Assembly: GCA_964016885.1 (NCBI GenBank)
Contig: OZ024756.1
Span: forward strand, 12,152,001 to 12,216,000
DNA: 64,000 bases
Source: Eledone cirrhosa
Lineage: Eukaryota
Direction: 5' to 3'
This document shows, one piece after another, positions 8,894 to 55,525 of the stretch (position 1 is its first letter; each line of letters opens with the position of its first letter). Position numbers and translations under genes: made by a program. A model generated the notes under the pieces. It was not told where the DNA came from and ran no database searches. It was given only the letters and a program-made list of their open reading frames with translations.

Positions 8894-9265
8894 ATCAAAA
8901 GATGGTTGAAAGAGTTCCAAGTATTTTATTATGCGCATTTCAAAAACAAATATCATCATGGGGTGATATCTGCGTTCTCATCAGATAAAATAGGGAGACA
9001 TGATATGAAGCTTAAAAAACAAAACTTCACTGCTCACAAGTGTTTTTTAAGCTTCATATCATGTCTCCCTATTTTATCTGATGAGAACGCAGATATCATC
9101 CCATGATGATATTTGTTTTTGAAATGCGCATAATAAAATACTTGGAACTCTTTTAACCATCTTTTGATCTTATATTATTTATACTCCAGTCCTACAAACT
9201 GTAGAGTGCTACTTATCCGATATCTGCATTGCTTTATTGTGCTACAATAAAACTCACCTCCTACA
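8888..9265 (+). mobile_element. Penelope-like fold-back remnant (about 130-bp arms plus tail)
   Basis: 8888-9020 is the reverse complement of 9042-9174. Begins in (TA)n, contains a hammerhead motif and has the tail hairpin at 9182-9210. Confidence 0.85.
9070..9140 (+). ncRNA. Type I minimal hammerhead ribozyme (mirror copy on - strand at 8922-8992)
   Basis: Stem I TATTTTAT/ATAAAATA, core CTGATGA (9078-9084), about 15-bp stem II, GAAA (9121-9124), palindromic TGCGCA, cleavage triplet ATA. Confidence 0.85.
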
Positions 9266-9817
9266 TATATAAGAATAAATGGGCTGTGTAGTTGCTGGAT
9301 AAAGTGTACTTATTAAAAGAGGAAAGCAAGAACGGGAGAAAATTTTCCTTCATCAGCTGTCTGCTGGGGATCTTGGACAATTCAACACATTAAAGACAAT
9401 ATGTCTCACCCCAGGGTGTCAATAACTCAAGTAAGTTATTGGGAAGAAAAAGAAAAAAAATGAAAAAAAACAGGAGGCAACAAACCGAAGAGGGAAACCT
9501 GAAGCACGTGTGTGAGCAACTGGAAGAGAGAGAGAGAAATTAAAGTCGACGTCAATTACTGAACATAAGTTCGAGGCTGTGTGGACGAGAAAAAAAATAC
9601 GTCTGATCTCCACAAGAATTAGTGAGAAAGAGACAGCTAGAGGAGCAGGCAAGAGAAACAGTGAGGTGGTTAGCAGAGAGAGGGAGAGGAAGATTTGATA
9701 GCAACAACATAGATAGGGAGAAAGAGAGGATAGGTCACGGCGAAAGTTGATACAAATTTAAGAATAAACGGGAGCATGAAAGATAGACATTAGACGATGA
9801 TGATGATGATATATATA

Positions 9818-10005
9818 TAAATGGCTTCTACAAGACTAGAACTGTTTCATTCGAAGGAAATTATCAGGAAAGCTTTCTGATGATTTCCTTCAAATGAAAC
9901 TGTTCTAGTCCTGTAGAAGGTATTTCTATATTAAATAGTGTATATACTCTACTATGTATTGAGTACCTTACTTACTGTGGTTACCCCTGATTGATCCCGG
10001 AATAC
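9818..10005 (+). mobile_element. Penelope-like fold-back remnant family A with hammerhead core
   Basis: Palindrome centred on GAAAGCTTTC. CTGATGA 9877-9883, GAAA 9896-9899, GTC 9908-9910. Tail homologous to the reverse complement of 55311-55375; (TA)n on both sides. Confidence 0.8.
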
Positions 10006-10062
10006 ACATATATATATATATGTGTTTGTGTGTGCGTATATATATATATATATATTTATTTG

Positions 10063-10133
<71 letters not shown>

Positions 10134-10274
10134 TTGTATGTATATATATATATATATTTATTTGTATGTATGTATGTATATATATATATATATATATATA
10201 TTTATTTGTATGTATGTATATATATATATATATATTTGTATGTATGTATATATATATATATATTTATTTGTATG

Positions 10275-10336
<62 letters not shown>
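10006..10336. repeat. (TA)n/(TATG)n compound microsatellite
   Basis: Direct reading. Similar tracts near 8820, 33720-33990, 41845-42225, 44200-44455 and 63160-63420. Confidence 0.97.
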
Positions 10337-10339
<3 letters not shown>

Positions 10340-10589
10340 TTCCTAAATATACCAACTCTGCATTCCATCACAAGAGAGTGGGATGTAAAATCATAACCAG
10401 GAAAAGGCTTGCTGAAATCACAAGCCGAAACCGCTTGGCACTGCAGTCAGGAATTTACATATCCATATACCCACCCTGCATCCCCTATGAATTGAGTATT
10501 CCCGTGATTAATGGTTTCCTCAGTCTCGGCACTGTAGACTGTATATATATGTGTGTGTGTATGTATGTCTATATATATACTGTAATATA

Positions 10590-11147
10590 AGTTTTGTAGA
10601 AATATCCAAAGGTAAGAGCACTCAGTCCATAGGACAGGTAAAGTATTATTAGTTACAACAGTGACATGTACAGGTTTCATTGGGTTATAAAATCCATCCT
10701 TTATGTTAATGGTACAAAATTTTGTCAGCTATGTAACTCAGAAAAGTAGAATATACTCTTGCAACTGGCTTCAGAGAAACACTGCTTAAATACTTGCCTC
10801 AACTGCTTTAGTCACTGTCCGCACAAAGTGAAATTCATTCTAAGAAAATGGTATAACTGATTTTAATTTCAAGGAATTTGACTTTTTTTAATTACTAACT
10901 TTGCACAAGTCCCCACCTCCTTTGTAGTCTCTGTTGATATTCACCTCCCTTTACATTATCTAAAAGATTTGTTTATTATATAGCTAAATTCAAAATTACC
11001 TGCCCTTGAAGAACTCTTGTGTATTTTCAAAAAACCTCAAATTAACCTGTGGAGGTAGCCATTTTATTTTATGTAACAGGCTGAATGAGTTATGTCGTAT
11101 AACGCAATGAAACTTAAGTACCTGTATATGTCACTGTTGTAACTAAT
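10590..11147 (+). mobile_element. 5'-truncated Penelope-like element: inverted pLTR piece, endonuclease C-terminus, pLTR
   Basis: 10702-10860 translates YVNGTKFCQLCNSEK*NILLQLASEKHCLNTCLNCFSHCPHKVKFILRKWYN*, matching the C.LC..EK...LN....C.H..KF end of PLE GIY-YIG proteins. About 10646-10690 is an inverted copy of about 11100-11147. Confidence 0.8.
11076..11125 (+). ncRNA. Hammerhead ribozyme candidate with variant core CUGAAUGA
   Basis: ACAGG-CTGAATGA-GTTAT/ATAAC-GCAAT-GAAA-CTTAAG-TA-CCTGT: perfect 5-bp stem I and palindromic stem III. Confidence 0.65.
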
Positions 11148-11157
11148 ATATATATAT

Positions 11158-11503
11158 CATTTCATTTTCATCATTTCATTTTACGTCCGCTTTTTCCCTG
11201 CTTGCAAGGGTGGGACGATAACTGATTCTGGCTTGATTTCTACAGCTGGATGCCCTTCCTAACACCAACCTCATTTACAGTGAGTGCTGGGTGCTTTTTT
11301 GCCGTAGCGCCTCCACGACCACTTTACAGTGGAATGATAGGGACCCCAGTCCCTATCATCTCATTTCTACAGCTGAGTAAACTGGAGCAATGTGAAATAA
11401 AGTGTCTTGCTCAAGGAAACAACACATCACCCGGTCTGAGAATTGAACTCACAACCTTTCGATTGCAAGGCCAATGCTCTAACCACTAAGCCATGTGCCT
11501 CCA
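11158..11503 (-). mobile_element. SINE family A
   Basis: Full-length reverse-complement copy. Confidence 0.93.
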
Positions 11504-11526
11504 TATATGTTATATATATATATATG

Positions 11527-11683
11527 CAGAGTGGGATTTACGTATAAGCTAAACAAGCTATAGCTTAGGGCCCCCACACAAAAAAACAGCGACAATTTGT
11601 CGCTGACATAGGACATCTGGACATATAAAGGGCCCCATTATCTCAAATAGCTTAGGGCCTCATCAAATCTATATCCGGCCCTG
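11527..11683. mobile_element. hAT-type MITE
   Basis: Imperfect TIRs CAGAGTGGGATTTA / TATATCCGGCCCTG and internal TAGCTTAGGGCC repeats. Confidence 0.65.
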
Positions 11684-11716
11684 TATATATGTATGTTATA
11701 TATATATATATGTGTG

Positions 11717-11751
<35 letters not shown>

Positions 11752-11754
<3 letters not shown>

Positions 11755-12203
11755 TTCAAGAGTAACCAATCTTAAAGAGAGAGATGGAGATAGTAGAGGA
11801 AAGATTGGTGAGTTAGTTAGAAGCCAAAGCGTGAAGGCATGTGCTCAATGTGCAATATGCAGTAGAAAGCAGCTAGGTGGCTGGGTTCATGCAGAGGTTA
11901 GGTGCACAGAGCTGGAAATATTCATTAGTTAAGCAAAACAAGACCACAAATTTCACAAGGAAGACATTATTAAAAGGTTGTCAACATATTTTAGTTTGAT
12001 GTAAGGAATGGAGAGAATAATAATAATGATAATATTAATAATAATTATTATTATTATATTATTGTATTATTATATTATTATTATTAATATTATCATTATT
12101 ATTATTCTCTACATTCCTTACATCAAACTAAAATATGTTGACAACCTTTTAATAATGTCTTCCTTGTGAAATTTGTGGTTTTGTTTTGCTTAACTAATGA
12201 ATA
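11752..12203 (-). mobile_element. Fold-back remnant family B (about 120-bp arms, 170-bp tail)
   Basis: 11919-12045 is inverted against 12085-12203. Homologous copies at 60987-61628 and 47805-47960; flanked by (TA)n. Confidence 0.8.
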
Positions 12204-12491
12204 TATATATATATATATGTGTTATATATATATATAGTATTCTTTATTTGGGTTTCTTGAAATCTTTATTCGGTATCTTTTGAAGGTGTCTGTGTGTTAT
12301 ATATAGTGTCTAGGTTGTATCTAAACTGTAATTGTATTATGTCTGTATTTATTAGCTGATCGGAATAGCATCACTTACTCATAATGTATTCACAAGTCAA
12401 TAAGTGAGCTTCTGCATAGTTACTCAATTTGCTAGAAATAACAGGCAAATATGCCTCAAATTACATTGAACCATCTCAAGTATTTAGTTAA

Positions 12492-13084
12492 CCCTTTAAT
12501 GTTCAAACCATCCAAAACCGGCCAGAATTCTCTACCTTTTTCTGTTGAAATTGGCTGTAACTGGTCACTCAAACTGATGTTAAGGTATTGTTCTCAAAAT
12601 AAATACTTTCAAAATCTCATAGATTCGAAATTATGTAAGCTAAAGCCTTTACCATGAAAATACAATAGTGTATATATAGAGTAATGTAAATGCTATGTGA
12701 GGTAAAGCCTTTACCATGAAAATACAATAGTATATATAGAGTAATGTAAATGTTATGTGAGGTAAAGCCTTTACTGTGAAAATACAATAGTATATATAGA
12801 GTAATGTAAATGTTATGTGAGGTAAAGCCTTTACTGTGAAAATACAATAGTATATATAGAGTAATGTAAATGTTATGTGAGGTAAAGCCTTTACTGTGAA
12901 AATACAATAGTATATATAGAGTAATGTAAATGTTATGTGAGATATTATGTGAGGTAAAGCCTTTACTGTGAAAATACAATAGTATATATAGAGTAATGTA
13001 AATGTTATGTGAGATATTATGTGAGGTAAAGCCTTTACTGTGAAAACACAATAGTATATATAGAGTAATGTAAATGCTAAAGGG
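12492..13084. mobile_element. piggyBac-type MITE with internal 60/74-bp tandem expansion
   Basis: TTAA-CCCTTT ... AAAGGG-TTAA termini and about 7 internal repeats at 12640-13075. Confidence 0.85.
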
Positions 13085-13286
13085 TTAATGTAGGAGTATA
13101 GAGTTGCCTAGCCAGATGTAGTGTACAAGAGAGAAGATTGCACTGGCAAGGGCATGTAATGCATATGGAAGATGATTGTAGGATGTTCCTAGCGGAAGGA
13201 AGCTACTGTAGAGGAAGACCTGAGCAGAGTGGTGGGTTTGAAAAGACCCATCCTACCTATGCAATCATGGAAATTGGACATGAAGT

Positions 13287-13742
13287 TTGATGGTGATGGT
13301 TGTCATGGTGGTGGTGATGATCATAGTGGTAATGGTAGTTATGGTAGTGATGGTGGTGGTGCTGGTGCTGGTGGTAATGATGGTAGTGGTCCTAGTGATA
13401 GTGGTGGTGGTGGTGGTGGTGGTTTTGGTGATTGTGGTTGTGGTGATAGTGGTGGTGATGATGGTGGTGGTAGTGGTTGTGGTGCTAGTGGTGGTGGTAG
13501 TGGTCCTAGTGATGGTGGTGGTAGTGGTAGTGATGATGGTGGTGGTAGTGGTTTTGGTGATGGTGGTTGTGGTGCTAGTGGTGGTGGTAGTGGTAGTGAT
13601 GATGGTGGTGGTAGTGGTTTTGGTGATAGTGGTAGTGATGATGGTGGTGGTAGTGGTTTTGGTGATGGTGGTTGTGGCGCTAGTGGTGGTGATAGTGGTA
13701 GTGGCGCTAGTGATGGTCGTGGTAGTGGTGGTGGTGATGATT
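13287..13742. repeat. (GGT/GAT/AGT)n low-complexity triplet repeat
   Basis: Direct reading; follows a degraded RTE 3' end at about 13090-13290. Confidence 0.93.
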
Positions 13743-13984
13743 CAATGCCAGTTAATATCATCACACATTTAACAGTCGTCATTAAATATGGATATTAGTT
13801 TGGATCAAATCATTTCCTTCCTATGACAAATTACAGTTTTACCGTGTTTTATAGTTATTGCGATTCCAACCCATCTTCCAGAGAATGAAAAATTACTGAA
13901 TATTTCAAGAGTGTATTTTTCAGCCAATTAACAAACAAACCTAAACAATTTCTTTTTTTTTTTCATTATTTGATCATTATTTAA

Positions 13985-14360
13985 ATTGTCGGTAGAGAGT
14001 CAGACGCCATGCTTTGCGACCGACAGAGTTACGGCCCTTTATGTTCTGAGTTCAAATCCCGCCGAGGTTACCTTTGCCTTTCATCCTTACGGGGTCGATA
14101 AAATAAAGTACCAGTAATGTACTGGGATTGATTTAATCAACTTTCCCCTCCTCTTCAAATTGTTGGACTTGTACCTAAAGTAGAAACCAGAGGGCTGGAC
14201 GCCATGATTTGACGCATGGAGTTACGGCCCTTGCCATTCTGAGTTCAAATCCCGCCGAGGTTAGCTTTGCCTTTCATCCTTACGGGGTCGATAAAATAAA
14301 GTACCAGTAATACACTGGGATAATTGCTGGCCTTGTGCCTAAAGTAGAAACAATTATTAT
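13985..14360 (+). mobile_element. Two tandem copies of SINE family B (Nin/Deu-like central domain)
   Basis: GAGTTCAAATCCCGCCGAGGTTAACTTTGCCTTTCATCCTTACGGGGTCGATAAAATAAAGTACCAG core and GGCCTTGTGCC-AAAGTAGAAAC(ATT)n tail. Confidence 0.88.
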
Positions 14361-14439
14361 CAGCCATACCAGATATTTTTCTGGTGTCAAAAATAAAAAA
14401 AGGAAAAATCTTCTATTAAACTTACTTCATTTACATGTG

Positions 14440-15017
14440 TGGTAGTATAGGTTGTAGTATGGGTGTGTGGTTAAGGTGATAGTATAGCTGTGTAATTAAG
14501 GTGGTAGTATGGCTGTGTAGTTAAGGTGGTAGTATAGCTGTGTAGTTAAGGTGGTAGTATAGCTGTGTGGTTAAGGTGGTAGTATAGCTGTGTAGTTAAG
14601 GTGGTAGTATAGCTGTGTGGTTAAGGTGGTAGTATAGCTGTGTGGTTAAGGTGGTAGTATAGCTGTGTAGTTAAGGTGGTAGTATAGCTGTGTGGTTAAG
14701 GTGGTAGTATAGCTGTGTAGTTAAGGTGGTAGTATAGCTGTGTGGTTAAGGTGGTAGTATAGCTGTGTGGTTAAGGTGGTAGTATAGCTGTGTAGTTAAG
14801 GTGGTAGTATAGCTGTGTGGTTAAGGTGGTAGTATAGCTGTGTAGTTAAGGTGGTAGTATAGCTGTGTGGTTAAGGTGGTAGTATAGCTGTGTAGTTAAG
14901 GTGGTAGTATAGCTGTGTGGTTAAGGTGGTAGTATAGCTGTGTGGTTAAGGTGGTAGTATAGCTGTGTGGTTAAGGTGGTAGTATAGCTGTGTGGTTAAG
15001 GTGGTAGTATGGCTGTG
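14440..15017 (+). repeat. 25-bp minisatellite
   Basis: Unit GTGGTAGTATAGCTGTGT(A/G)GTTAAG, about 22 copies. Confidence 0.97.
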
Positions 15018-17503
15018 TCATATCTATCTATGGACTTCTGTCATATCTATCTATGGACCTCTGTCATATCTATCTTTGGACCTCTGTCATATCTATCTAT
15101 GGACCCCTATCATATCTATCTTTGGACCTATGTCATATCTATCTAAGGACTTCTGTCATATCTATCTATGGACCTCTGTCATATTTATCTTTGGACCTCT
15201 GTCATATCTATCTATGGACCTCTGTCATATCTATCAATGGACCTGTATCATATCTATCTGTGGACCTCTGTCATATCTATCTGTGGACCTCTGTCATATG
15301 TATCTATGGACCTCTGTCATATCTATCTATGGACCTCTGTCATATCTATCTATGGACCTCTGTCATATCTATCTTTGGACCTCTGTCATATCTATGGACC
15401 TCTGTCATATCTATCTGTGGACCTCTGTCATATCTATCTCTGGACCTCTGTCATATCTATCTAAGGACCTCTGTCATATCTATCTATGGACCTCTGTCAT
15501 ATCTATCTTTGGACCTCTGTCATATCTATCTATGGACCTCTGTCATATCTATCTATGGACCTCTGTCATATCTATCTATGGACCTCTGTCATATCTATCT
15601 TTGGACCTCTGTCATATCTATCTTTGGACCTCTGTCATATCTATCTATGGACCTGTATCATATCTATCTATGGACCTCTGTCATATGTATCTTTGGACCT
15701 CTGTCATATCTATCTATGGACCCCTATCATATCTATCTATGGACCTCTGTCATATGTATCTATGGACTTCTATCATATCTATCTATGGACCTCTGTCATA
15801 TCTATCTATGGACCTCTGTCATATCTATCTATGGACTTCTATCATATCTATCAATGGACCTGTATCATATCTATCTATGGACCTCAGTCATATCTATCTA
15901 AGGACCTGTATCATATCTATCTATGGACTTCTGTCATATCTATCTATGGACTTCTGTCATATCTATCTAAGGACCTCTGTCATATCTATCTCTGGACCTC
16001 TGTCATATCTATCTAAGGACCTCTGTCATATCTATCTATGGACCTCTGTCATATCTATCTTTGGACCTCTGTCATATCTATCTATGGACCTCTGTCATAT
16101 CTATCTTTGGACCTCTGTCATATCTATCTTTGGACCTCTGTCATATCTATCTATGGACCTCTGTCATATCTATCTATGGACCTCTGTCATATCTATCTAT
16201 GGACCTGTATCATATCTATCTATGGACCTCTGTCATATGTATCTTTGGACCTCTGTCATATCTATCTATGGACCCCTATCATATCTATCTATGGACCTCT
16301 GTCATATGTATCTATGGACTTCTATCATATCTATCTATGGACCTCTGTCATATCTATCTATGGACCTCTGTCATATCTATCTATGGACTTCTATCATATC
16401 TATCAATGGACCTGTATCATATCTATCTATGGACCTCAGTCATATCTATCTAAGGACCTGTATCATATCTATCTATGGACTTCTGTCATATCTATCTATG
16501 GACTTCTGTCATATCTATCTAAGGACCTGTGTCATAACTATCTATGGACCTCTGTCATATCTATCTATGGACCTCTGTCATATCTTTGGACCTCTGTCAT
16601 ATCTATCTGTGGACCTCTGTCATATCTATCTAAGGACCTCTGTCATATCTATCTCTGGACCTCTGTCATATCTATCTATGGACCTCTGTCATATCTATCT
16701 TTGGACCTCTGTCATATCTATCTATGGACCTCTGTCATATCTATCTTTGGACCTCTGTCATATCTATTTTTGGACCTCTGTCATATCTATCTATGGACCT
16801 GTGTCATATCTATCTATGGACCTCTGTCATATCTATCTATGGACCTCTGTCATATCTATCTTTGGACCTCTGTCATATCTATCTATGGACCTGTATCATA
16901 TCTATCTATGGACCTCTGTCATATGTATCTTTGGACCTCTGTCATATCTATCTATGGACCCCTATCATATCTATCTATGGACCTCTGTCATATGTATCTA
17001 TGGACTTCTATCTATGGACCCCTATCATATCTATCTATGGACCTCTGTCATATCTATCTATGGACTTCTATCATATCTATCAATGGACTTGTATCATATC
17101 TATCTATGGACCTCAGTCATATCTATCTAAGGGCCTGTATCATATCTATCTATGGACTTCTGTCATATCTATCTAAGGACCTCTGTCATATCTATCTATG
17201 GACTTCTGTCATATCTATCTAAGGACCTCTGTCATATCTATCTATGGACCTCTGTCATATTTATCTTTGGACCTCTGTCATATCTATCTATGGACCTCTG
17301 TTATATTTATCTTTGGACCTCTGTCATATCTATCTATGGACCTCTGTCATATCTATCTAAGGACCTCTGTCATATCTATCTATGGACCTCTGTCATATTT
17401 ATCTTTGGACCTCTGTCATATCTATCTAAGGACCTCTGTCATATCTATCTATGGACCTCTGTCATATCTATCTATGGACCCCTATCATATCTATCTATGG
17501 ACC
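15014..17503 (+). repeat. 23-bp minisatellite
   Basis: Unit GGACCTCTGTCATATCTATCT(A/T)T, about 108 copies. ORFs in all + frames are artefacts. Confidence 0.98.
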
Positions 17504-22678: not shown

Positions 22679-22703
<25 letters not shown>

Positions 22704-22705
<2 letters not shown>

Positions 22706-22845
22706 ACGAAGGAAATGTGGTAAGGAACCAGGTGGACCATAACGCACCAAAGTACTCAATACTTAGGGTAGTAGAGTGGGTAATAGGAACGAGTAGGACC
22801 CCAACGGCTTGAGCTCAGCCGTCGGGGTCCTACTCGTTCCTATAT
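22704..22845 (-). mobile_element. Fold-back remnant family C
   Basis: Arms TAGGAACGAGTAGGACCCCAACGGCT / AGCCGTCGGGGTCCTACTCGTTCCTA with tail hairpin at 22751-22777. The sister copy at 43915-44030 shows GAAACGGC...GTC (hammerhead 3' half). Confidence 0.75.
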
Positions 22846-22859
22846 ATATATATATATAT

Positions 22860-23030
22860 ACGATATATTAACAAATGGAAACTATATTTATAAAACCATA
22901 TTTATTTTATTATACATATTTCAAGGGCCCTTGAAATATGTATAATAAAATAAATATGGTTTTATAAATATAGTTTCCATTTGTTAATATATTGTATATT
23001 TACTCCACTAACATGTTGAGTGCTTTATAT
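22860..23030 (+). mobile_element. Fold-back remnant family D
   Basis: Near-perfect 135-bp palindrome centred on CAAGGGCCCTTG, then GAAATATGTATAATAAAATA. Tail hairpin at 23001-23024; sister copy at 46103-46272. Confidence 0.8.
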
Positions 23031-23250
23031 CAGTTTTAAAAAAATGTTTAAGCTTGTTGAATCCAAACAAATTAAATATAACCTCTGCATATATATATAT
23101 ATATTTATGATATGTACACACATACACACACATCCAACATGACAGTATGATATTGATATGTTATTATTTGATAGTCCTGGCAGGGAGGGGCAGGGGGAAA
23201 TGATATCACATGATGGTATGATATTAACTTGATATCTTGTTATTTGACAG

Positions 23251-23659: not shown

Positions 23660-23875
23660 TTTATTGAAAATTAACCTAGAGTTAGAAACTTCAACACATA
23701 TTGTTTTTTTACAATGAAAAATAGCCTAAAGAACTTGGGCATAAAAGCTACAGGCAACACTGTCGACTTTTTTCCTTTCTGGGGTTTTTATGCCCAAGTT
23801 CTTTAGGCTATTTTTCATTGTAAAAAACAATAGGTGTGTTGAAGTTTCTAACTCTTGGTTAATTTTCAATAAATA
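23660..23875. repeat. Long inverted repeat (about 88-bp arms, 38-bp spacer)
   Basis: TATTTATTGAAAATTAACC...GGGCATAAAA versus TTTTATGCCC...GGTTAATTTTCAATAAATA; microsatellite flanks. Confidence 0.88.
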
Positions 23876-30157: not shown

Positions 30158-30543
30158 AAATGTTAAACATTACTTAAACATTCACTATAAATTTGCTAAA
30201 TAAAATTTTTACTGGTAAATCTGTAATAGAAAGTGTGTGTGTGTGTGTGTGTGTTGACAGACGTGACATATGACAACTTATATCACCACTATCCCCCAGT
30301 CATACAAGCCTGAATAGTGTGGAAGAATACTCTCTGGTGAACCCCAGGTACCAGACTGGAGCATGTCTCAGGGAGAGAGATGCAATAGTCATTCCAACTC
30401 ACGAAGCTCACTCTTGCGAGTGACCAATTTTACTCCAATAAAAATAAGTAGGGAGGTTGTTTGGGGATCAAACTGGGTTGCCTTCACTACAGAGCCCACG
30501 TCTGTACCATTTATATATATATATATTCAAAACAACGAACAAT

Positions 30544-30895
30544 ATGGAGGCACATGGCTTAGTGGTTAGAGCATTGGGCTTGCAATCGAAAGGTTGTGAG
30601 TTCAATTCTCAGACCGGGTGATGTGTTGTTTCCTTGAGCAAGACACTTTATTTCACATTGCTCCAGTTAACTCAGCTGTAGAAATGAGATGATAGGGACT
30701 GGGGTCCCTATCATTCCACTGCAAAGTGGTCGTGGAGGTGCCACGGCAAAAAAGCACCCAGCACTCACTGTAAATGAGGTTGGTGTTAGGAAGGGCATCC
30801 AGCTGTAGAAATCAAGCCAGAATCAGTTCCCGTCCCACCCTTGCAAGCAGGGAAAAGTGGACGTAAAATGAAATGATGATGATGATGATGATGAT
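30544..30895 (+). mobile_element. SINE family A inserted into a PLE remnant
   Basis: Full-length copy with GAACA on both sides (possible TSD). Confidence 0.93.
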
Positions 30896-32472: not shown

Positions 32473-32504
<32 letters not shown>

Positions 32505-32654
32505 GTAATAATAATAAATTTGAAGACTAAAATCCAAAGAGGGCTCGATAAGGATAAATATTTATCAAATATATAAGAACCGTAGAGCAAATATTTATTA
32601 AAATAAGATCCCGTTAAGGGCGATTCTTTGCTTAAACTTTAATCTGTTATTTTA

Positions 32655-32699
<45 letters not shown>

Positions 32700-34014: not shown

Positions 34015-34789
34015 ATGTGTATATGTATGTGTGTGATTGTGATAGTTCGTTTAAATTTAAAATAACTAAGTACATATATTGATTGAAGTACTCAATACTT
34101 GTAGTAGAGTAAAATTTATTGTACATATTTGGAATGGGTCTTCAAATTTTGACTTCAGCAGCTTATTTAATTAGTCTGCTCAAATAAAGCCATTAGATAT
34201 CAAACTTAAATTTACCTGATATGCATAATTATATATAAATATATGTGTTTATACATGCACCCTGTACACTCTGTCTAATGTGTATAACTGGTGTTTGCAA
34301 CATAACAAAGGTTCTGTGAAAGGTAGTTTTTAGATAAATATAAACACTTTAAAAGAAACATTTTTTAATCATAGAACCAGGGGTGATTTCAAAGGATTTG
34401 GTAATAAAAAAAATTGTATGGAAATAAAGTTAGTCTTTTAATATTTATACAATATTGTGTTGAAGCCATAGTTTCGTATCTATGCTGGTCCATTTAAGGA
34501 TAATTTCTTGATGAAAAAATATTTATTATTGGTAAGTATATTTTGTATTGAGATGGTGATAATATCTTGAATTGCGTGACTGCTAGGAAGTCAATATTCT
34601 TAGATGCCTCACGGGATCACACTATCTTATTATTATTTCAATCCCTCTGAGGTTGACTTTGCCTTTCATCCTTATGGGGTCGATAAAATAAAGTACCAGT
34701 AATGCACTGGGTAATTGCTGGCCTTGTGCCAAAAGTAGAAACCATTATTATTTCAAGTAAATTTGTTTTTAAACAGCGAGTGAATTTCG

Positions 34790-34983
34790 AAATAGAAATA
34801 AAAGTTCTTGCTGTATTTTTGACTAAAGAAATTTTAGCCTGATAGTGGGGCTTAGAACCCTCTTAGAAATGGAAAAAGATGAGTATTGACGTACATCTTT
34901 TTCCAATTCTTCGAGGGTTCTAAACCCCATTATCAGGCTAAAATTTCTTTAGTCAAAAATACGGCGAGAGCTTCTATTTCTAT
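34790..34983. repeat. About 195-bp palindrome (MITE-like)
   Basis: AATAGAAATA...GGAAAAAGATG versus CATCTTTTTCC...TATTTCTATT with a 10-nt spacer. Confidence 0.85.
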
Positions 34984-35003
34984 TATTTCAAATGATTATT
35001 TCA

Positions 35004-40059: not shown

Positions 40060-41066
40060 TTGTGCACCCTTATCACTTTAAAGATGCAGTGGTTGCACCA
40101 TGGTGTTTGCCTTCAGCCCCACACGATGACAGGACACACTTGCCAGATATTGACAGCGCTTTAAAAAACGATGCAGAGGCAGTGCTGACCAAAGATTTAC
40201 AACAAACTTCCTACCTGTTGGTTTGCCTGTTATCCCATTACATCTCTTGTGTACCCAAGATCTGCATTGTGTGCATTTTATAGAATTTATGCCAGTTCCT
40301 TTTCTGCATATCGAACATGGCCATTTCGCTGATGAAATCTGAGTTTTGTCCTCTTTTCTACTCATCAACACTTTAGTCTTAGCTATGTTCACTCTCAGTC
40401 CTCTTCATTCCAACTTTTGTTTCCATAGCCAGAATTTATTCTCTAGCTCTTCTACTGATTCTGCTATAAGAACCAGATCGTCAGCATAGAGAAGTTCCCA
40501 TGGGCAGCCAGTCTTAAACTCCTCTGTTAAGGCTTGGAGGTCTATAATGAACAAGAGTTGGCTGAGGACTGAACCTTGATGTACTCCTACTTATATCTGT
40601 AATTCCTCGCTAAACTCCATTCCTACCCTCACTTTACTGACAGCACCTCTATACAAAGCTTGCACTGTCCTCACAAACCATTCCTCTACACCTAGTTTCC
40701 TTAAGGACCACCAGATGACAGATCGGGGTACTCTATCAAAGGCCTTCTCTAGGTCATCAAAAGCTAAGTATAATGGCTTATTCTTCCCTAAGAACCTCTC
40801 TTGTAGTTCTCTCACTAAGTAGAGGGCATCTGTTGTACTTTTCCCAGGCATCTCATCTAATTTGACCCTTTCTCTAATTAGTTGAGCTGGCATTCTTTCT
40901 GCCACTTTCATAACCTGATCCATTAATTTTATGCCCCTATAATTACTCCTCTCCAGAGCATCCCCTTTACCTTTGTAGCAATTTATGAGAATACTGCTGC
41001 ACCAGTCTTTGGGTAAGACTCCGCCATATATAGCTTGATTGACGATGCGTGCAACCAGTTTTTTAC
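40060..41066 (-). pseudogene. RTE LINE reverse transcriptase fragment (disrupted)
   Basis: NYRGIKLMDQVMKV...STTDALYLVRELQERF...DLEKAFDRVPR...GVHQGSVLS..LF...ELLYADDLVL...NIAKTKVL, then a Cys-rich C..C...C..C..WVH..C segment. Confidence 0.9.
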
Positions 41067-41219
41067 CTATTTATATATATATATAGTATATATATGTATA
41101 TATATATATATATATCATCATCATTTAACGTCCATCTTCCACGCTAGCATGGGTTAGACGGTTTTGTTCCATTTGATGCGGGAATGGTTGTGACACCATG
41201 TCTCACTCGCACGGAAGCG

Positions 41220-43231: not shown

Positions 43232-43390
43232 ACAGAGTTTTCTAGCTTGCTCTACAACATTACCACCACAATCTTAGCTACAGAACGCAGTATAGGCACG
43301 CTGAGAATTAAGGAAGCCCTCTTAATCAAGCAATTAAAACCTAGGATCAATAATCAAATGGAAAGAAGTGCACCAGAATGGCTAATTTAA
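43232..43390 (+). pseudogene. Penelope-like GIY-YIG endonuclease C-terminal fragment
   Basis: TEFSSLLYNITTTILATERSIGTLRIKEALLIKQLKPRINNQMERSAPEWLI* matches the IL......L.I.E.L.I...KP..N motif. Confidence 0.7.
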
Positions 43391-43884: not shown

Positions 43885-43918
<34 letters not shown>

Positions 43919-44085
43919 CGAAGGAATTGTGGTAAGGAACGAAGATGGACCAGAGTACTCAATACTTAGGGTAGTAGAGTGGGACGAAACGGCTTGAGCT
44001 CTGTCGTCGGGGTCATACTTTTTCCTATATATGTATATATATCATCATCATCATTTTACGTCTGCTTATATATATATATTATATG

Positions 44086-44317: not shown

Positions 44318-44455
44318 TATATATGTATGTATATATATGTGTGTATGTGTATATATATATATGTGTGTGTGTGTGTATATATATGCCTGTGTGTGTGTAT
44401 ATATATATATGTTTATATATATGTATATATATGTTTATATATATGTATATATATA

Positions 44456-44752
44456 ATGGAGGCACGTGGCTTAGTGGTTAGAGCATTGGGCTTGCAATCG
44501 AAAGGTTGTGAGTTCAATTCTCAGACCGGGTGACATGTTGTTTCCTTGAGCAAGACACTTTATTTCACATTGATCCAGTTTACTCAGCTGTAGAAATGAG
44601 ATGATAGGGACTGGGGTCCCTATCATTCCACTGCAAAGTGGTCGTGGAGGTGCCACGGCAAAAAAGCACCCAGCACTCACTGTAAATGAGGTTGGTGTTA
44701 GGAAGGGCATCCAGCTGTAGAAATCAAGCCAGAATCAGTTCCCGTCCCACCC
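44456..44752 (+). mobile_element. SINE family A (3'-truncated)
   Basis: Head and body intact, tail missing. Confidence 0.9.
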
Positions 44753-45740
44753 TCATCGTAATGGCGTTGAGAAACAAACTATACTCTCAATGACACTTAA
44801 AACATTTTAAATATCAAAATATTTAAACTTTATGAGAATTTCAAGGCCATTCCATCTAGACATGTGTTGATTATCTACTTCTACTTATAAACGGGGGTTG
44901 GATTTTGTCCTATTTCTCAGACATTAAAATAAGAGGTCAGCTTGTATTTGAATCTAAATGGTATTTATCTGGGTGTCAGCTTATGTGGGTGTGTAAATTA
45001 TTTAATCATTAATATTTCTACAACAACTACCAAATATGATTGCATATAATCTATTGATTTCTAATTTAAGATCAAATTTGATTACATCAACCCCAGTATT
45101 TAACTGGTACTTTGTTTTATTGATTCTGGAAGGATGAAAGGCAAACACTGTGATGCCATTCTATCCAACACCATTCGGACATGCTTTCTAGCATAGAGTT
45201 ACGTCCCTTTATGGTCTGATTTCAAATCGCGCCGAGGTTAACTTTGCCTTTCATCCTTACGGGGTCGATAAAATAAAGTACCAGTAATGTACTGGGTAAT
45301 TGGCCTTGTGCCAAAAGTAGAAACAATCATTATTAGAGAAATATTGTAATGTACAGAGAACTGAAATCATCAAATAAACCCACACTTGTACACAGATGCA
45401 TACACACATCTAATGGATATACAAACACATCTCTGATGGCATATTACTGACTGTTTAAGTTTAAATATTGGTAGTAAATAGTACTATGGATTATATGTGT
45501 TTGTAGCTAAATATTAGTAGTATGTTGATGTAATGAAACCTGTATAATTTTTCTGTATGAAGCTTTCTCTACAGTCCTGTGCTTCTATTCTATTCTGTGT
45601 ATTGTGTGTGTATACCTAGAACATATTACATTAAGGCACTTTATATTCTACCTCTTAGTAACTGCTTCTAGATTAGCAATCAGGGTTTGTTTTGTTAAAA
45701 GCCTTATGTTGGTAAACAGTTTCTTCTAGTATATATATAT

Positions 45741-46077
45741 TGGAGGCACATGGCTTAGTGGTTAGAGCATTGGCCTTGCAATCGAAAGGTTGTGAGTTCA
45801 ATTCTCAGACCAGGTGATGTGTTGTTTCCTTGAGCAAGACACTTTATTTCACATTGCTCCAGTTTACTCAGCTGTAGAAATGAGATGATAGGGACTGGGG
45901 TTCATATCATTCCACTGCAAAGTGGTTGTGGAGGTGCCACGGCAAAAAAGCACCCAGCACTCACTGTAAATGAGGTTGGTGTTAGGAAGGGCATCCAGCT
46001 GTAGAAATCAAGCCAGAATCAGTTCCTGTCCCACCCTTGCAAGCAGGGAAAAGCGGACGTAAATTGATGATGATGAT
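45741..46077 (+). mobile_element. SINE family A
   Basis: Full-length copy. Confidence 0.93.
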
Positions 46078-46268
46078 TATATATATATATATATATATAT
46101 ATAAGCAGAAGGAATATTCAATTTGTTGGTAATTCAACAAATATAAATGTTTATAACTGATTCAGAGCACTCTACAAGTTTTCCGGGGTATAATATACAA
46201 TGATATTAAATAAATGGAAACTATAATATGGTTTTATAAATATAATTTCCATTTATTTAATATCATTG

Positions 46269-46300
<32 letters not shown>

Positions 46301-47988: not shown

Positions 47989-48021
<33 letters not shown>

Positions 48022-48346
48022 GTATATATCAATATGTATATCATCATCATCATCATCGTTTAACGTCCATCTTCCACGCTTGCATGGGTTTGGACGGGAG
48101 TTCTCCCACCTGAGGCAAGATTGGTTGTCTTGCTCAGGACTGTCTGGCAGGTTTTCTACGGCTGGATGCCCTCAACCACGTTTACAGTGTGGGGCTGGGA
48201 GGTTTTTACCGTGTTACCTACACAGCCACATTACAGCGTGGACTGTGTGTTTTTTTGTCGTGACACCTACACGATCTCATTTGTTTCGGCCTGGATGTTG
48301 TGGTATATATATGTATATATATATATGTATATATATATATGTATAC

Positions 48347-48386
<40 letters not shown>

Positions 48387-48400
48387 GTATATATATATAT

Positions 48401-49280: not shown

Positions 49281-50247
49281 GTGTATATATATATATATAA
49301 GTATGTACTAAGAGTGAGAAATGAAATTTCGTTTCATTTTTTCCGTTTATATATATATATATATATTTATATATCATCATCATCATCATCTTCATTTAAC
49401 GTCCATTTTCCACGCTAGCATGGGTTAGACGGGAGTTGTCCCACTTGAAGCAAGGTTGGTCGGGTGACCGTGTCTCGCTCATATAGGACTATCTGGCAAG
49501 TTTTCTATGGCTGGATGCCCTTCCTAACACCAACCACATTTACAGTGTGGAACTGGGAACTTTTTACCGTGTTACCTATACGGCCACATTACAGCGTGGA
49601 CTGTGTGTTTTTTTTAATTGTCGTGACACACGACCTCGATCTCATTTTCTCGTGCTGCTGGTGGGAGTGGGAGGATAGGGTAGGGGTAGTGGATTGGGGT
49701 GTATATTTGGTTAAGAGGTGCCTACTGACTGTAGGTTTCGCTTTGTACATAGGCAAGGCGGGTCTTCTGTATTACTGTGTAGCGCCATATATATATATAT
49801 GTGTGTGTGAGAAAGAGAAAGAAAGTGTCACTGTTGTTGTTTAATGTCTATACACTTTAATCTGGTGCAATGTTACATCTACTGTTTATATGTGTTACCT
49901 CTGTTCACTGTGTGTTTCATTACGACATGGTCACCTTGTTTCTGTATTCAACATTTGGGTCACATCTCATCAGTATGTGTATTTATATAGTTGATTTGTT
50001 TCACTGAGAGTTTTCAAATGATTTGAGCTGATTAGGGCTTTATAATTTCAAGCGTAGACCCACCCACACTAACTTACTAATTTCTTTTAACATGTTCAAA
50101 TCTTTTTTAATAAAAAAAATATTATAAGCATTTAAAAAAATAATTTATTATATAATTAATTTTTTTTATATTCTACCTTAATCTGTTTGGTAAATCTTTC
50201 TGGTTTTTTTACTCTGCTTACTATTGTGGTGTGTGTGTGTGTTGCAG

Positions 50248-50406
50248 GAGTCGATGATCAACATATATTCTGACTGTGGGGAAGCAAAAGGCAAGGGCAT
50301 GTTCCAAAGAGTCAAAAGTATCGTAAATCAAGGAATAGATACCAATCGGATGTTTATGTTCGATAATGCATCTGAACTTCTCGTTAGCCAAATGCGCATT
50401 TTACAG
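50248..50406 (+). CDS. NUGGC: Internal coding exon C of the SLIP-GC/NUGGC-like gene
   Basis: Acceptor (TG)nTTGCAG, donor CAG/GTGGGT, 159 nt, phase 0-0: ESMINIYSDCGEAKGKGMFQRVKSIVNQGIDTNRMFMFDNASELLVSQMRILQ. Fits the recalled M...Y..C....G.G.F.R.K............MF pattern of SLIP-GC proteins. Confidence 0.75.
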
Positions 50407-50848
50407 GTGGGTCAACTTACATTTCATTAACTGTTTCTCTTCTCTCGTTCCGCCAAAATGTCATTGCCAGTTTGTCTTCCGTCTCATGTCTTGTTGATGG
50501 TGTGCCTGATTTACACACACACACACGCACACACGCATGTATGCATGTTTTCACCTCAAACACCCACATGCGCACCACACATCCACCCACATATATAAAC
50601 ACAGACAAATCATAGCAAGATTTATATATATATATGTGTATGTGTGCATATGTGTATGTGTGTATATATATATATATAGATATGTGTATATAGATATATG
50701 TATGTAGATATATGTATGTAGATATATATATATATAGATATATATATATGTATATAGATATATGTATGTAGATATATATATATATAGATATATGTATATA
50801 GATGTATCTATATAGATATATATGTATATAGATATATGTATATAGATA

Positions 50849-52138
50849 CAGGGTGGGGCATAAAAACTGTTACAAAATAAAATGCAAATAGTTCTTGAAA
50901 AAAACATTTATTTCAAGATCTGAGATCTGACTTCAACAAATAGTAAGTAATATACTATTAAACAACTGCACAAAAATTTATTCAAAATGCTTTCCTCTAG
51001 CTCTCACTACCGCTCGAAGTCTTCTAGGAAAGTCTTTGGTGGGTATTTTCTCCCATACTTTATTCAGTTTTGATTTTAGAGTTTCAATATTTTGGCTAGG
51101 AGTAGAGCAGGCTTCACTCTCAAGAATTGACCATAAAGAAAAATCGAGAGGGTTGAGATCTGGTGATGTGGGAGGCCACTCTTCCTTACTGATCCATGCA
51201 GGACAATGGTCTCTACAACACTGTTGTGTTACACTAGCAGTGTGGATCGTCACTCCATCTTGTTGGAGAGTCCAAATGTCATCGCCATAAACAGATGTGC
51301 ACCATGGCATCAGTGCTCCTTCCAAAATATCCTTTATGTAAAGTTCTTTGTTAATTTTAACTCCTTGAGTCACAAAAATCATAGGAGACTTGCCTCTTTC
51401 AGAAATGGCTGCCCAAACCATCACTGATGCTGGTTTCTGTGTTCTGAACACTTTTCCTACACTTGAAGGAATTGATTTGAGACTTTTTGCAAGTACTCGA
51501 TCATTTTGATGATTGTGAGACTGCTGCAGAGTGAATAACTTCTCATCTGTAAAGATGATGTTTTGCAGCGTGCCATCCTTGATACGGTTCAATAACAGTT
51601 TACTTTTGGAGAACCTCTTTTCAATTGTGGCTGCAGAAAGAAGCTGCCTCTTTTGGAACTTATAGGGTGACATCCCCAGATCATCTCAACATATCCTCCG
51701 CATAATTCTCGGCGATGTTTCTGCTTCTTCTGCCATTTTTCTCATAGACCTTCTTGGATTACGCCTTATTTTTTCCCTCACACTTTTAATGAGTTTTGGT
51801 GTTCTTGAGGTGCGAGGGCGTCGGGATTGAGGTCTGTCTTTGGTCAAGGAAGTTTCCTTAAATCGATCGATTGTCATTTTGATCAACATTCTATTGATCT
51901 TAAGAGTTTTCCCCAGTTTGAATATCTCGGGTGGAGTCAGGCCTTTTCATGCTTCTCTATTATGAACTTTCTTTTCAATTCTATGGACATTGCAAATTGT
52001 TAATGGCGTAATGTTCTGAAAAATAGTTAATATGGCTATAGTGCATGGATTTGATACAAATATATTGGTTATATTAGCCACATAATGTATTTTTAAAATT
52101 GATTTAAAACTTTGTAACAGGAATTATGCCCCACCCTG
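50849..52138 (-). mobile_element. Full-length Tc1/mariner element, DD37D (maT) group
   Basis: TIRs CAGGGTGGGGCATAA..CTGTTACAAA at both ends, TA TSDs, 1290 bp. Confidence 0.95.
50978..51990 (-). pseudogene. DD37D transposase, frameshifted
   Basis: ATG at 51990 (MSIELKRK) and an HTH region with RPQSRRPRT. Catalytic motifs IIFTDEK, QQDG and SPDLNPLD, with 37 residues between the 2nd and 3rd Asp. Frame breaks near 51940 and 51685. Confidence 0.9.
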
Positions 52139-52240
52139 TATATATATAGATATTGCTATATATAGATATTGCTATGATTGCTATGATTTCTTCATCTTAT
52201 CCAATACTAAGTCATGCTCTCAAACTCTCCACATTCACAC

Positions 52241-52411
52241 ATACACCATACTATATATTATCTAACCCAATAGATACACCATACTATATATTATCTAACC
52301 CAATAGATACACCATACTATATATTATCTAACCCAATAGATACACCATACTATATATTATCTAACCCAATAGATACACCATACTATATATTATCTAACCC
52401 AATAGATACAC
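52241..52411 (+). repeat. 33-bp tandem repeat x5
   Basis: ATACACCATACTATATATTATCTAACCCAATAG. Confidence 0.95.
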
Positions 52412-52852
52412 TGTAATATATATTCTTTAACTCGATAGATAATTCTCATATTTATAATTATCCATCTTTAAAATTCATAGCTTTCATTACTTTCACTTTA
52501 AGCATCTTGTTGTGTCTTTTATTATTATTATCATTACTGAGGGTGGTCGATTGGCAGTATCGGTAGAGGGTCGGACACCATGCTTTGACGCATAGAGTTA
52601 CGGCCCTTTATGATCTGAGTTCAAATCCCGCCGAGGTTAACTCTGCCTTTCATCCTTACGGGGGGGAGGGGGTCGATAAAATAAAGTACCAGTCACGCAC
52701 TGGGGTCGATTTAATCGACTTTCCCCTTCTCCCCAAAGATTGCTGTCCTTCCATTATTATTATCATTACTATCATTATTGTTATAAATGTTTCATAGGAT
52801 GTTGGATTGGCAAAAATGTTAGAGCAGCAAACAAGATGTGGTAGATTGACAG

Positions 52853-53986
52853 AGTGTGTAGAGCATCAGACAGATGTGTAGAGCATCAGACAGGTGTGTA
52901 GAGCATCAGACAGGTGTGTAGAGCATCAGACAGATGTGTAGAGCATCAGACAGGTGTGTAGAGCATCAGACAGATGTGTAGAGCATGAGACAGGTGTGTA
53001 GAGCATCAGACAGGTGTGTAGAGCATGAGACAGGTGTGTAGAGCATCAGACAGGTGTGTAGAGCATCAGACAGGTGTGTAGAGCATCAGACAGATGTGTA
53101 GAGCATCAGACAGGTGTGTAGAGCATGAGACAGGTGTGTAGAGCATCAGACAGGTGTGTAGAGCATCAGACAGATGTGTAGAGCATGAGACAGGTGTGTA
53201 GAGCATCAGACAGGTGTGTAGAGCATGAGACAGGTGTGTAGAGCATCAGACAGGTGTGTAGAGCATGAGACAGGTGTGTAGAGCATCAGACAGGTGTGTA
53301 GAGCATCAGACAGATGTGTAGAGCATCAGACAGATGTGTAGAGCATCAGACAGGTGTGTAGAGCATGAGACAGATGTGTAGAGCATGAGACAGGTGTGTA
53401 GAGCATCAGACAGGTGTGTGTAGAGCATCAGGCAGGTGTGTAGAGCATCAGACAGGTGTGTGTAGAGTATCAGACAGGTGTGTGTAGAGCATCAGGCAGG
53501 TGTGTAGAGCATGAGACAGATGTGTGTAGAGCATCAGACAGGTGTGTGTAAAGCATCAGACAGATGTATGTAGAACATCAGACAGGTGTATGTAGAACAT
53601 CAGACAGGTGTGTGTAGAGCATCAGACAGATGTGTGTAGAGCATCAGACAGAGTGTGTAGAGCATCAGACAGTGTGTAGAGCATCAGACAGATGTGTAGA
53701 GCATCAGACATGTGTGTAGAGCATCAGTCAGATGTGTAGAGCATCAGACAGGTGTGTAGAGCATCAGACAGGCATGTAGATCATGAGACAGGTGTGTAGA
53801 GCATCAGACAGGTGTGTAGAGCATCAGACAGGTGTGTAGAGCATCAGACAGAGTGTGTAGAGCATGAGACAGGTGTGTAGAGCATCAAACAGATGTATGT
53901 AGAGCATGAGACAGATGTGTAGAGCATGAGACAGGTGTGTAGAGCATGAGACAGGTGTGTAGAGCATCAGACAGATGTGTAGCAGT
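52853..53986 (+). repeat. 20-bp (partly 22-bp) minisatellite inside a family B SINE
   Basis: Unit GTGTGTAGAGCAT(C/G)AGACAG, about 55 copies. The SINE resumes at CTGAGTTCAAATC (54010). Confidence 0.97.
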
Positions 53987-54342
53987 ATTTTGTTCTGTTT
54001 TTTTATGCTCTGAGTTCAAATCTTGCCAAAGTCATCCTTACTGGATTGATAAAATAAAGTACCAGTAATACACCGGGGTCAATTTCATTGATTTTCCCCT
54101 CCCCTACAAAATTGCTGGCCTTGTGCCTGAATCAGAAACCATTATTAATACCACTACTGCTATTACTACCACCATCACTACTGGGATTAGAACTCTACTG
54201 ATCCACTGATAACCAGAGCTAACCACCCAACCATGACGCTATAACTGATTGTAAGAGCTGCAATGTGTAGTGGCGGATTGTAGCTATCTGCTACGATAGT
54301 TGAACAAGGAGGTGATGACAGACATTTTGTGTATATATATAT

Positions 54343-54737
54343 ATGGAGGCACATGGCTTAGTGGTTAGAGTATTGGGCTTGCAATCGAAAGGTTGTGAGT
54401 TCAATTCTAAGACCGGGTGATGTGTTGTTTCCTTGAGCAAGACACTTTATTTCACATTGCTCCAGTTTACTCAGCTGTAGAAATGAGATGATAGGGACTG
54501 GGGTCCATATCATTCCACTGTAAAGTGGACGAGTAGGCGCCACGGAAAAAAAAGCACCCAGCACTCACTGTAAATGAGGTTGGTGTTAGGAAGGGCATCC
54601 AGCTCTGTGGAAATCAAGCCAGAATCAGTTCCCGTATGAGCTAGACAAGGTCAGCCGACTGGACACTGCCCACAACAGGACAACCCATCTAACCCATGCT
54701 AGCGTGGAAGAACGGACGTAAAACGATGATGATGATG
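54343..54737 (+). mobile_element. SINE family A, long-tail variant
   Basis: Same head and body; tail matches the 49150-49280 type. Confidence 0.92.
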
Positions 54738-54751
54738 ATATATATATATAT

Positions 54752-55018
54752 ATTTATTATTATGTAATAAACAACATAAGGCAATTATTCCATTTACCAG
54801 TGGTTTCTTAAAAGCAAAAGGTTTTGCTTTCAATCCTCAGAATGAAAAAATCCTGGTTTGTTTATTGAATTTGGATTGAAAGCAAAACCTTTTGCTTTTA
54901 AGAAACCACTGGTAAATGGAATAATTGCCTTATGTTGTTTATTACATAATAATAATTAAGCTCAGTTGCCTACATAGAGCACTCTTTTTTCCTGGACATT
55001 TCCGACGGAATTACTTCA
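54752..55018 (+). mobile_element. Fold-back remnant (about 85-bp perfect arms plus tail)
   Basis: 54752-54836 is inverted against 54873-54955. Contains GAAA-CCACTGG-TA and tail hairpin GCTC...GAGCACT at 54960-54983. Confidence 0.8.
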
Positions 55019-55310
55019 TATATATATATTTATATATATATATATATTTATTAAAATAACAGATTAAAGTTTAAGCAAAGAATCGCTGTTTTAGATTTTA
55101 GTCTTCAAATTTATTATTATTACTATATATATATATATATATATATATGTTTACAAACAAACCGAACATTATAATAAATGTTCGGTAAACCCATACGTAC
55201 TTATATATATGTGTGCATGTATGTATATATATACACACTACTGTACGTCTGTACACATATATGTATGTACCTATATATACTTATATATATATATATATAT
55301 ATATATATAC

Positions 55311-55525
55311 GTTATTCCGGGTTGAATCGGAGGTAACCACAGTAAGTGAGGTACTCGATACATAGCAGAGTATAAAAGTTTTAATAGAGATGAGATTCTA
55401 CAGGACTAGAACTGTTTCATTCTTTAGAAATCATCAGGAATCTGGCTTTCCAAAGCCAGATTCCTGATGATTTCTAAAGAATGAAACAGTTCTAGTCCTG
55501 TAGAATCTCATCTCTATTAAAACTA
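55311..55525 (-). mobile_element. Fold-back remnant family A with hammerhead core on both strands
   Basis: Perfect palindrome about 55377-55524 containing CTGATGA-TTTCTAAAGAAT-GAAA-CAGTTCTAG-TC. Tail at 55311-55376. Confidence 0.85.

Follow-up and report, generated by a model that had tools for sequence, protein, structure and literature searches.

Paired bulged hairpins adjoining the insertion ends of Penelope-like elements assigned to the Hydra clade in Eledone cirrhosa

The stretch of DNA considered here (hereafter the window) comprises 64,000 nucleotides (nt) from Eledone cirrhosa (Eukaryota; assembly GCA_964016885.1, contig OZ024756.1, positions 12,152,001 to 12,216,000 of the forward strand) and is part of a 3.0-Gb, TA-rich animal genome. 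The palindromes scattered through it are truncated insertions of Penelope-like elements (PLEs), apparently of the Hydra clade, that lie head to head in (TA)n. They are asymmetric: in a masked self-comparison one arm abuts (TA)n, and the other continues for 60-100 nt first, forming a tail. A bulged hairpin, H1, lies at the end of the tail-less arm, and full-length and tandem elements hold a second copy, H2, before the open reading frame (ORF), at the position where the tailed arm ends. The hairpin pair is a real cis element; its clade is known, but the pair itself appears not to have been described. To judge from sequence comparison, H1 and H2 are probably binding sites in the RNA, each of which makes the reverse transcriptase (RT) start a few bases to its 5′ side.

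The hairpin and the elements that carry it

The motif is a bulged hairpin consisting of RCTC, a variable upper stem, a 2-nt 3′ bulge and GAGY-RCT. It had been noticed in a reading of the window's letters alone (the sequence-only reading) as TACTC-N11-17-GAGTRCT, and all ten strings given there are present at their coordinates and strands. Two of these sites, 10645 and 46190, are degenerate, the former with an uncertain parse, and the reading overlooked another site at 32540-32588 (−); the interior, given as 11-17 nt, actually spans 6-37 nt and is itself a stem plus the 2-nt bulge. A compensatory change proposed for the stem is supported. The unconstrained bottom pair is G-C in 47 cases, A-T in 4 and another combination in 4.

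The stem pairs covary, according to scripted counts over 53 hairpins (two of whose 18 H2 calls, L205 and L211, look false). With CTC and GAG fixed and a 2-nt 3′ bulge allowed, the next bases pair in 49/53 hairpins, against a mean of 20 and a largest value of 29 among 1000 shuffles; at offsets of 0, 1, 3, 4 and 5 nt, pairing is found in 2, 3, 8, 15 and 13 of the 53, respectively. The pair above the bulge, which is mostly TT, is C-G in 31 hairpins, T-A in 17 and another combination in 5. Between the first two states there are 6-8 switches on a 33-row RT tree built without an outgroup, at least four of which (4-5) are forced by well-supported branches.

By count alone, the pattern of the sequence-only reading is barely above chance in the window (8 matches versus 3.43 expected, with 3/100 shuffles reaching 8); its position and context are not. 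The refined hairpin structure occurs 8 times versus 0.73 expected in the window, and 59 times versus 6.15 in shuffles (20 shuffles, largest 15) in a 980-kb independent sample (10-kb stretches taken at 98 preset coordinates throughout the genome), the refined pattern having been tuned only after both data sets had been seen. An enrichment over shuffled controls holds for the refined motif and only weakly for the original pattern. Among 62 asymmetric fold-backs in the sample, all outside the window, 18 carry the strict motif at -1 to +11 of the arm end, and elsewhere within 150 nt it occurs in none of them. Degenerate copies and non-Hydra families are among the remaining 44. In this sample, long-tail families have the motif at the arm end, and short-tail families (34-59 nt) are without it. 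Extrapolated from the 980 kb, roughly 1.6 x 10^5 Hydra copies reside in the genome.

As the sequence-only reading had held, the motif adjoins the end of the short arm: 9/10 window sites have such an arm, none having been found at 34111. Exact ends lie 7 nt (9183), 5 nt (22777), 3 nt (46189), 4 nt (54960), 5 nt (55371) and, past one mismatch, 2 nt (23002) before the hairpin; at 43980 the arm ends at about -6 relative to the hairpin, and at the degraded 9945 site at about 14. In well-kept window copies the short arm terminates 2-7 nt ahead of the hairpin.

The carriers are assigned to the Hydra clade because the marks of their ORFs match those covered by the available definition of that clade (PMC8557442). 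These marks, read from endonuclease fragments upstream of motif-bearing ends and from full ORFs, comprise RWR/RWK, DKT, a CxCx5C linker, the lack of CCHH, and CxxC/CxH around the catalytic E and N. The C-terminal GIY-YIG domain without CCHH, the CxCx5C linker, and CxxC and CxH are present as in the Hydra definition. RWR or RWK is seen in families B (where the ORF start matches), C, Y, D and Z and in homologues, and is degenerate in old copies of family A; DKG is replaced by DKT in families D, A and L087 and by DKA in L033. The elements are also inserted into (TA)n and have, close to their 3′ end, a hammerhead that was located by its core pattern. The units measure 3.3-3.9 kb, with long 3′ untranslated regions (UTRs); the clade is described as generally <3 kb. 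An earlier placing of the endonucleases in the Nematis type was abandoned, the clade definitions indicating Hydra.

The sequence-only reading took the window's families to be unrelated, which is true of their DNA; those linked to proteins (9182, 9945/55372, 22777/43980, 23001 and 32588) are all tied to Hydra ORFs and form one clade. The 46190 and 10645 sites are tied to Hydra by DNA likeness only, and 54960 and 34111 are untied. No motif is found at either end of two CCHH-bearing non-Hydra families, represented by one read-through copy each. Rfam contains no family covering the motif and gives no match for the hammerheads, the palindromes yielding only sub-threshold matches to miRNA precursors; Pfam gives no match for 3 full Hydra ORFs, and a search of PDB sequences with a Hydra profile returned no meaningful match. 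Young families have many identical intact ORFs. A tandem array at G000:C1:437198845-437213178 consists of five family C units of 3531 nt, with intact 784-codon frames in 4/5 units and a short inverted tailed arm as cap.

The motif also extends beyond this genome. An alignment of 11 homologues retrieved 77 loci from public metagenome contigs, and 52 families were considered, of which 12 were dropped for having too little sequence after the hammerhead. H1 lies 45-71 nt past the hammerhead GAAAC in 30/33 testable metagenome families, or in 37/40 when joined by 7 own-genome families that were chosen knowing the motif; the shuffle expectation is 0.47 of 42. The 3 metagenome misses are one 1-nt variant, one junction and one false hammerhead. 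TAT or ATA occurs within 11 nt 5′ of H1 in 30/37 cases versus 17.3 expected. Six published Hydra consensus sequences (File S7 of PMC8557442) were read by eye: in this file, the exact motif ends the coral Hydra-2_Amil and sea cucumber Hydra-2_Ajap sequences, the copepod Hydra-1_Crog ends with a near-match, the 5′ end of Hydra-1_Ajap displays two hairpins 61 nt apart, and three of the consensus sequences stop 30-45 nt after the hammerhead. On viral contigs, 134 pattern matches gave 0 confirmed cases. A separate resemblance concerns the hammerhead itself: in many Hydra families its stem III reads ACTC-N-GAGT (File S2, PMC8557442), as does the lower stem when the hairpin is of the A-T form.

The second hairpin and the two arms

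The order within a unit is hammerhead, H1, H2 and ORF, with H2 situated about 55-105 nt downstream of H1, leaving 34-76 nt to the start codon. H2 is seen in full-length units of families B, C, Y and Z. In family D it was predicted from the end of the tail and then found, followed by a Hydra ORF, its distance being fixed in all 30 pattern matches bar one 1-nt variant. At least one hairpin is present in 35/42 metagenome 5′ regions, and two are present in 17/35 of those with 200 nt available.

Both hairpins are tracked by insertion ends. The end of a tail-less arm falls immediately 5′ of H1 and that of a tailed arm immediately 5′ of H2, and among (TA)n-ended copies of families B, C, Y and D, found by anchoring upstream of H1, 184/189 end 2-8 nt 5′ of one hairpin or the other. 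Metagenome ends agree by eye (L188/L180, L182/L183, L231, L183/L184, L220/L221). The sequence-only reading was right in proposing a conserved cis signal that fixes the end of the short arm in PLEs, and overlooked the second hairpin, which places the other end. H2 is never present in inserted terminal DNA; since it lies outside this DNA and yet places its end, an RNA role is indicated. In five full-length copies (L140, L206, L250, L282, L327) the 5′ end falls 7-14 nt before H2, which may represent a transcription start or block, in a sample biased to full ORFs. Outside Hydra, both insertion ends of L363:2267-2400 and of L364:2038-2200 share a TAT-ending word (AATAT followed by CG, and TCTTAT, respectively), which suggests primer pairing with (TA)n across clades.

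The distribution of the two arm types follows a strict rule. Scored on whole insertions from young families, head-to-head pairs consist of one tailed and one tail-less arm in 25/25 cases for family B, 5/5 for C and 4/4 for Y (two of the last corrected by eye, for neighbour mis-pairing and for a deletion in H1), or 34/34 paired insertions overall, a one-sidedness characteristic of the PLE tail. Tail length is about 55-105 nt in the Hydra families and 34-59 nt in the non-Hydra families here, which departs from the 30-40 bp by which such tails are recognized.

Each arm has its own 5′ truncation, independent of that of its partner, and the two are joined head to head. By eye, the tail-less arm extends further 5′ than its partner in 16/32 insertions (11/26 in family B and 5/6 in C), and for 8 of these 16 there is no tandem copy able to supply a tail. 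In addition, the family Y arms at window 55044-55126 share no sequence, and at 43980 and 32588 the short arm includes sequence missing from the long arm. A fold-back copy cannot exceed its template, so the longer tail-less arms and the non-overlapping arms at 55044-55126 contradict fold-back, except as a minor route, and two cDNAs can explain them. Internal rearrangements are common to both arms in L300, L310 and L311. A circular template was considered and rejected; many arms continue into the upstream unit past the hammerhead.

How the hairpins may act

A pair of hairpins serving as copying starts would explain why tails are one-sided. In the proposed mechanism, H1 and H2 of a single multi-unit transcript would each bind one element protein and place its active site 2-8 nt upstream. 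The endonuclease would nick both strands of the (TA)n target, whereupon one nick would prime at the H2 site, yielding the tailed arm, and its counterpart at the H1 site, yielding the tail-less arm, with help from a UA pairing of 1-6 nt immediately 5′ of each hairpin. The two cDNA ends would then be joined, and the tail would equal the spacing between H1 and H2. Going further, the hairpin pair could be a ruler, conserved across several animal phyla, on which an RT dimer binds both hairpins and fires two primed syntheses, a reading that we regard as evenly balanced between right and wrong. That each paired insertion would, on the ruler reading, be two joined cDNAs made without separate second-strand priming seems about as plausible as its opposite.

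Several observations weigh against this account. Family A, which occupies two of the window sites, lacks a canonical H2, its read-through copies displaying a different short hairpin, and it has two tailed ends; L197 has one hairpin only. A strict two-hairpin test is passed by only 4/17 own-genome 5′ regions, many of which are truncated junctions, and 13 loci gave no scorable pair. The stems are weak, and folding of the free RNA gives H1 in 4/7 regions and cross-pairing between H1 and H2 in 3. The lower stem is nearly invariant and so may be read as sequence, and counts of G-U versus A-C give the RNA strand no advantage over that of the cDNA. The signal for a shared template is also weak: in family B the median arm difference is 1 within versus 2 across loci, and the partner arm is nearest or tied in 16/23 cases. 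Finally, the anole Poseidon PAc displays in vitro no start-site difference between strands, and the motif is not in the PAc RNA as given in the text of Fig. S1B (PMC11167929).

An alternative at the level of DNA, which we consider unlikely, is that the GIY-YIG endonuclease recognizes the hairpins in the donor or the cDNA and makes its cut immediately to their 5′ side at resolution of the intermediate. The D. virilis endonuclease is reported to have needed the tail for plasmid cleavage (PMC11167929), endonuclease-mediated resolution has been suggested as the source of tails (PMC8557442), and the strand counts fit a hairpin on either strand. The relevant ends are, however, target-primed and fused to (TA)n, with H2 absent from the inserted terminal DNA; PAc starts at such sites in vitro (PMC11167929), and a bulged stem with a variable loop is no double-strand site. 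Alternatively, RNA might be cleaved or terminated just 5′ of the hairpins, with the RT starting at the resulting RNA 3′ ends. The sharpness of the insertion ends is in keeping with this, as is the coincidence of anole RNA-seq read ends with start sites (PMC11167929), but a free choice between RNA species would make about half of the pairs mixed, where 34/34 are, and PAc starts internally on uncut RNA (PMC11167929); this explanation appears quite improbable.

A function in the 5′ UTR, in translation or as a promoter, could instead have preserved the hairpins, with the starts set by, for example, UA-rich primer pairing. The distance from H2 to the start codon is indeed fairly constant (34-76 nt), TAT is overrepresented ahead of H1, and the two non-Hydra families with sharp TAT-word ends have no such hairpin. 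UA words are common in these regions, yet the ends keep to within 2-8 nt of both hairpins across spacings that range from 55 to 106 nt, which makes the explanation very improbable. The version in the sequence-only reading, with the short arm as a fold-back second strand and the hairpin as the boundary where synthesis stops, accords with the many short insertions that are near-perfect palindromes with a tiny loop and with junction palindromes read elsewhere as self-priming (PMC3846280), and is scarcely credible given the arm lengths and non-overlapping arms described above. In the favoured account, in which each hairpin sets a start, the short arm is a separate cDNA whose target-side end would be its beginning rather than its stop.

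Insertions and other features of the window

Several of the window palindromes hold hammerhead cores. Family B is represented by an H1 at 9183..9210 (+), linked to the full-length Hydra unit L280 with 88% identity. Its tailed arm, 9021..9269 (+), with a hammerhead core at 9078, ends just before the H2 position of the full-length unit, and its tail-less arm, 8887..9021 (−), stops at the 7 nt given above. Downstream, a relative of family A has H1 at 9946..9967 (+), a hammerhead core at 9877 and a degraded palindrome at 9813-9931. The degenerate H1 of uncertain parse at 10617..10645 (−) is similar to the L089 family, and a tail-less arm at 11098..11148 (+) matches sequence upstream of it.

Family C H1 sequences reside at 22751..22777 (−), in the tailed arm 22700-22822, which is linked to the full-length unit L283, and at 43954..43980 (−), where the tailed arm 43912-43983 starts only 3 nt before H1. 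The tail-less partner of the former, 22803..22843 (+), is the one stopping 5 nt 5′ of H1, and that of the latter, 43985..44028 (+), contributes about 44 nt absent from the tailed arm. Family D has a tail-less arm at 22853..22928 (−) and H1 at 23002..23024 (+) in the tailed arm 22927-23094, with H2 and a Hydra ORF in read-through copies; a relative of this family has a degenerate H1 at 46166..46190 (−) and a tail-less arm at 46241-46278 (+). The overlooked family Y H1 at 32540..32588 (−) lies in the tailed arm 32502-32606 (−), linked to L286, and is accompanied by a tail-less arm at 32605-32662 (+) that is longer than its tailed partner. In the other family Y insertion, 55044..55126, to which no one strand is assigned, the tail-less 55044-55092 (−) is joined to the last 30 nt of a tail at 55097-55126 (+). 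A solo tailed copy with H1 at 34087..34110 (−) has no short arm and no relative among the loci compared. Family E, to which no protein is linked, has the G-C form of H1 at 54960..54983 (+) and a tail-less arm at 54751-54828 (−). Family A itself has H1 at 55350..55371 (−) in the tailed arm 55312-55454, with a hammerhead core at 55437, and a tail-less arm at 55452..55524 (+) that stops 5 nt 5′ of H1. At 22700-23094 and 54751-55524, insertions are nested in one another's (TA)n flanks, giving multi-family PLE clusters.

Palindromes without the motif are found at 34791-34984, 56253-56475, 60098-60169 and 23661-23872, the first two of which look by eye like the short-tail families F5 and F6. A 48-bp satellite at 3-6542 comprises 136 copies and has long open frames without a Pfam match. 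A dispersed repeat of about 315 nt (11192-11525, 30542-30856, 44436-44753 and 45741-46052), with copies 95-98% alike and a tRNA-like head, is probably a short interspersed element (SINE) family. Fragments of a LINE-type RT at 40591-41067 (−), a DDE transposase at 50978-51685 (−) and a non-Hydra PLE endonuclease at 43268-43387 (+) are also present; among the window ORFs, Pfam matched only an unrelated RT and a DDE fragment.

Implications and comparison with known systems

How PLEs come by their one-sided tails and inverted repeats has been a question for two decades. In vitro work, first achieved in 2024, provided two start sites and not what fixes them, and a defined, covarying element now adjoins both start sites across the whole clade. 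Were the proposed role true, a broken hairpin would lose one arm type and a moved hairpin would alter tail length. On the ruler reading, the pair would supply the cis rule from which PLE tails and inverted repeats arise, as well as a portable signal of 25 nt for starting target-primed insertion. The motif is also a simple tool for finding the ends of Hydra copies and for classifying them.

In L1 twin priming, both target nicks prime on one RNA and an inverted join results, much as proposed here. The second L1 priming, however, takes place at internal sites that vary, and the resulting pieces have no overlap, whereas the two Hydra starts have fixed positions and a single upstream region is copied into both arms. 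The hepadnavirus epsilon, like other bulged stem-loops bound by RTs, is likewise a hairpin with a bulge that positions the initiation of reverse transcription; it differs in being protein-primed from the bulge, in its unrelated sequence and in the use of a single copy. The RTs of PLEs are the sister group of telomerase, and the sequence-only reading had conceived of a role like that of the telomerase template boundary element, which lies 5′ of the template and halts copying. An RNA stem adjoining the copied region, a related RT and short primer-template pairing are shared features, but the Hydra hairpin is 3′ of the copied region, on the side opposite to a boundary element, and would mark a start. 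The positioning of PLE RTs on RNA bears on the origins of telomerase.

Tails, hammerheads and inverted truncated copies are established features of PLEs (PMC8557442, PMC3846280, PMC4209133). With the Hydra clade as described (Craig 2021, PMC8557442), the present elements share the protein signatures, the (TA)n target, the hammerhead, the C-terminal GIY-YIG domain and inverted truncated copies. The accessible text of that paper lists hammerheads only, and its own consensus sequences hold the motif unremarked; the word "hairpin" has 0 occurrences in its text and supplement text. The accessible part of a preprint (10.64898/2026.07.22.740005) does not treat tails. Consistent with the sequence-only reading, which knew of no description of the motif, no account was found in the literature searched, which comprised search listings and the text of the papers named here.

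The closest likeness is to the anole Poseidon PAc, the RT of which starts internally at two sites that bound the tail (Frangieh 2024, PMC11167929). PAc starts at +111-118 but requires RNA as far as +172, some 55 nt further 3′; it cuts both target strands and is predicted to dimerize (PMC11167929). A tail between two RT starts, an internal start, a need for 3′ RNA, cutting of both strands and a predicted dimer are accordingly points of resemblance; PAc differs in belonging to another clade and in having a tail of 30-40 nt that lies in coding sequence. The accessible text of PMC11167929 names an "AC-rich stem loop" and contains no paired hairpins, covariation or one-of-each rule. In the PAc RNA (text of Fig. 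S1B, PMC11167929) a GGCCA...AGCC...GACA word occurs twice, 41 nt apart, or about one tail length, and is a possible analogue of the hairpin pair. The tail and its two start sites were already published (Frangieh 2024), and it is the hairpin pair that appears to be the new part.

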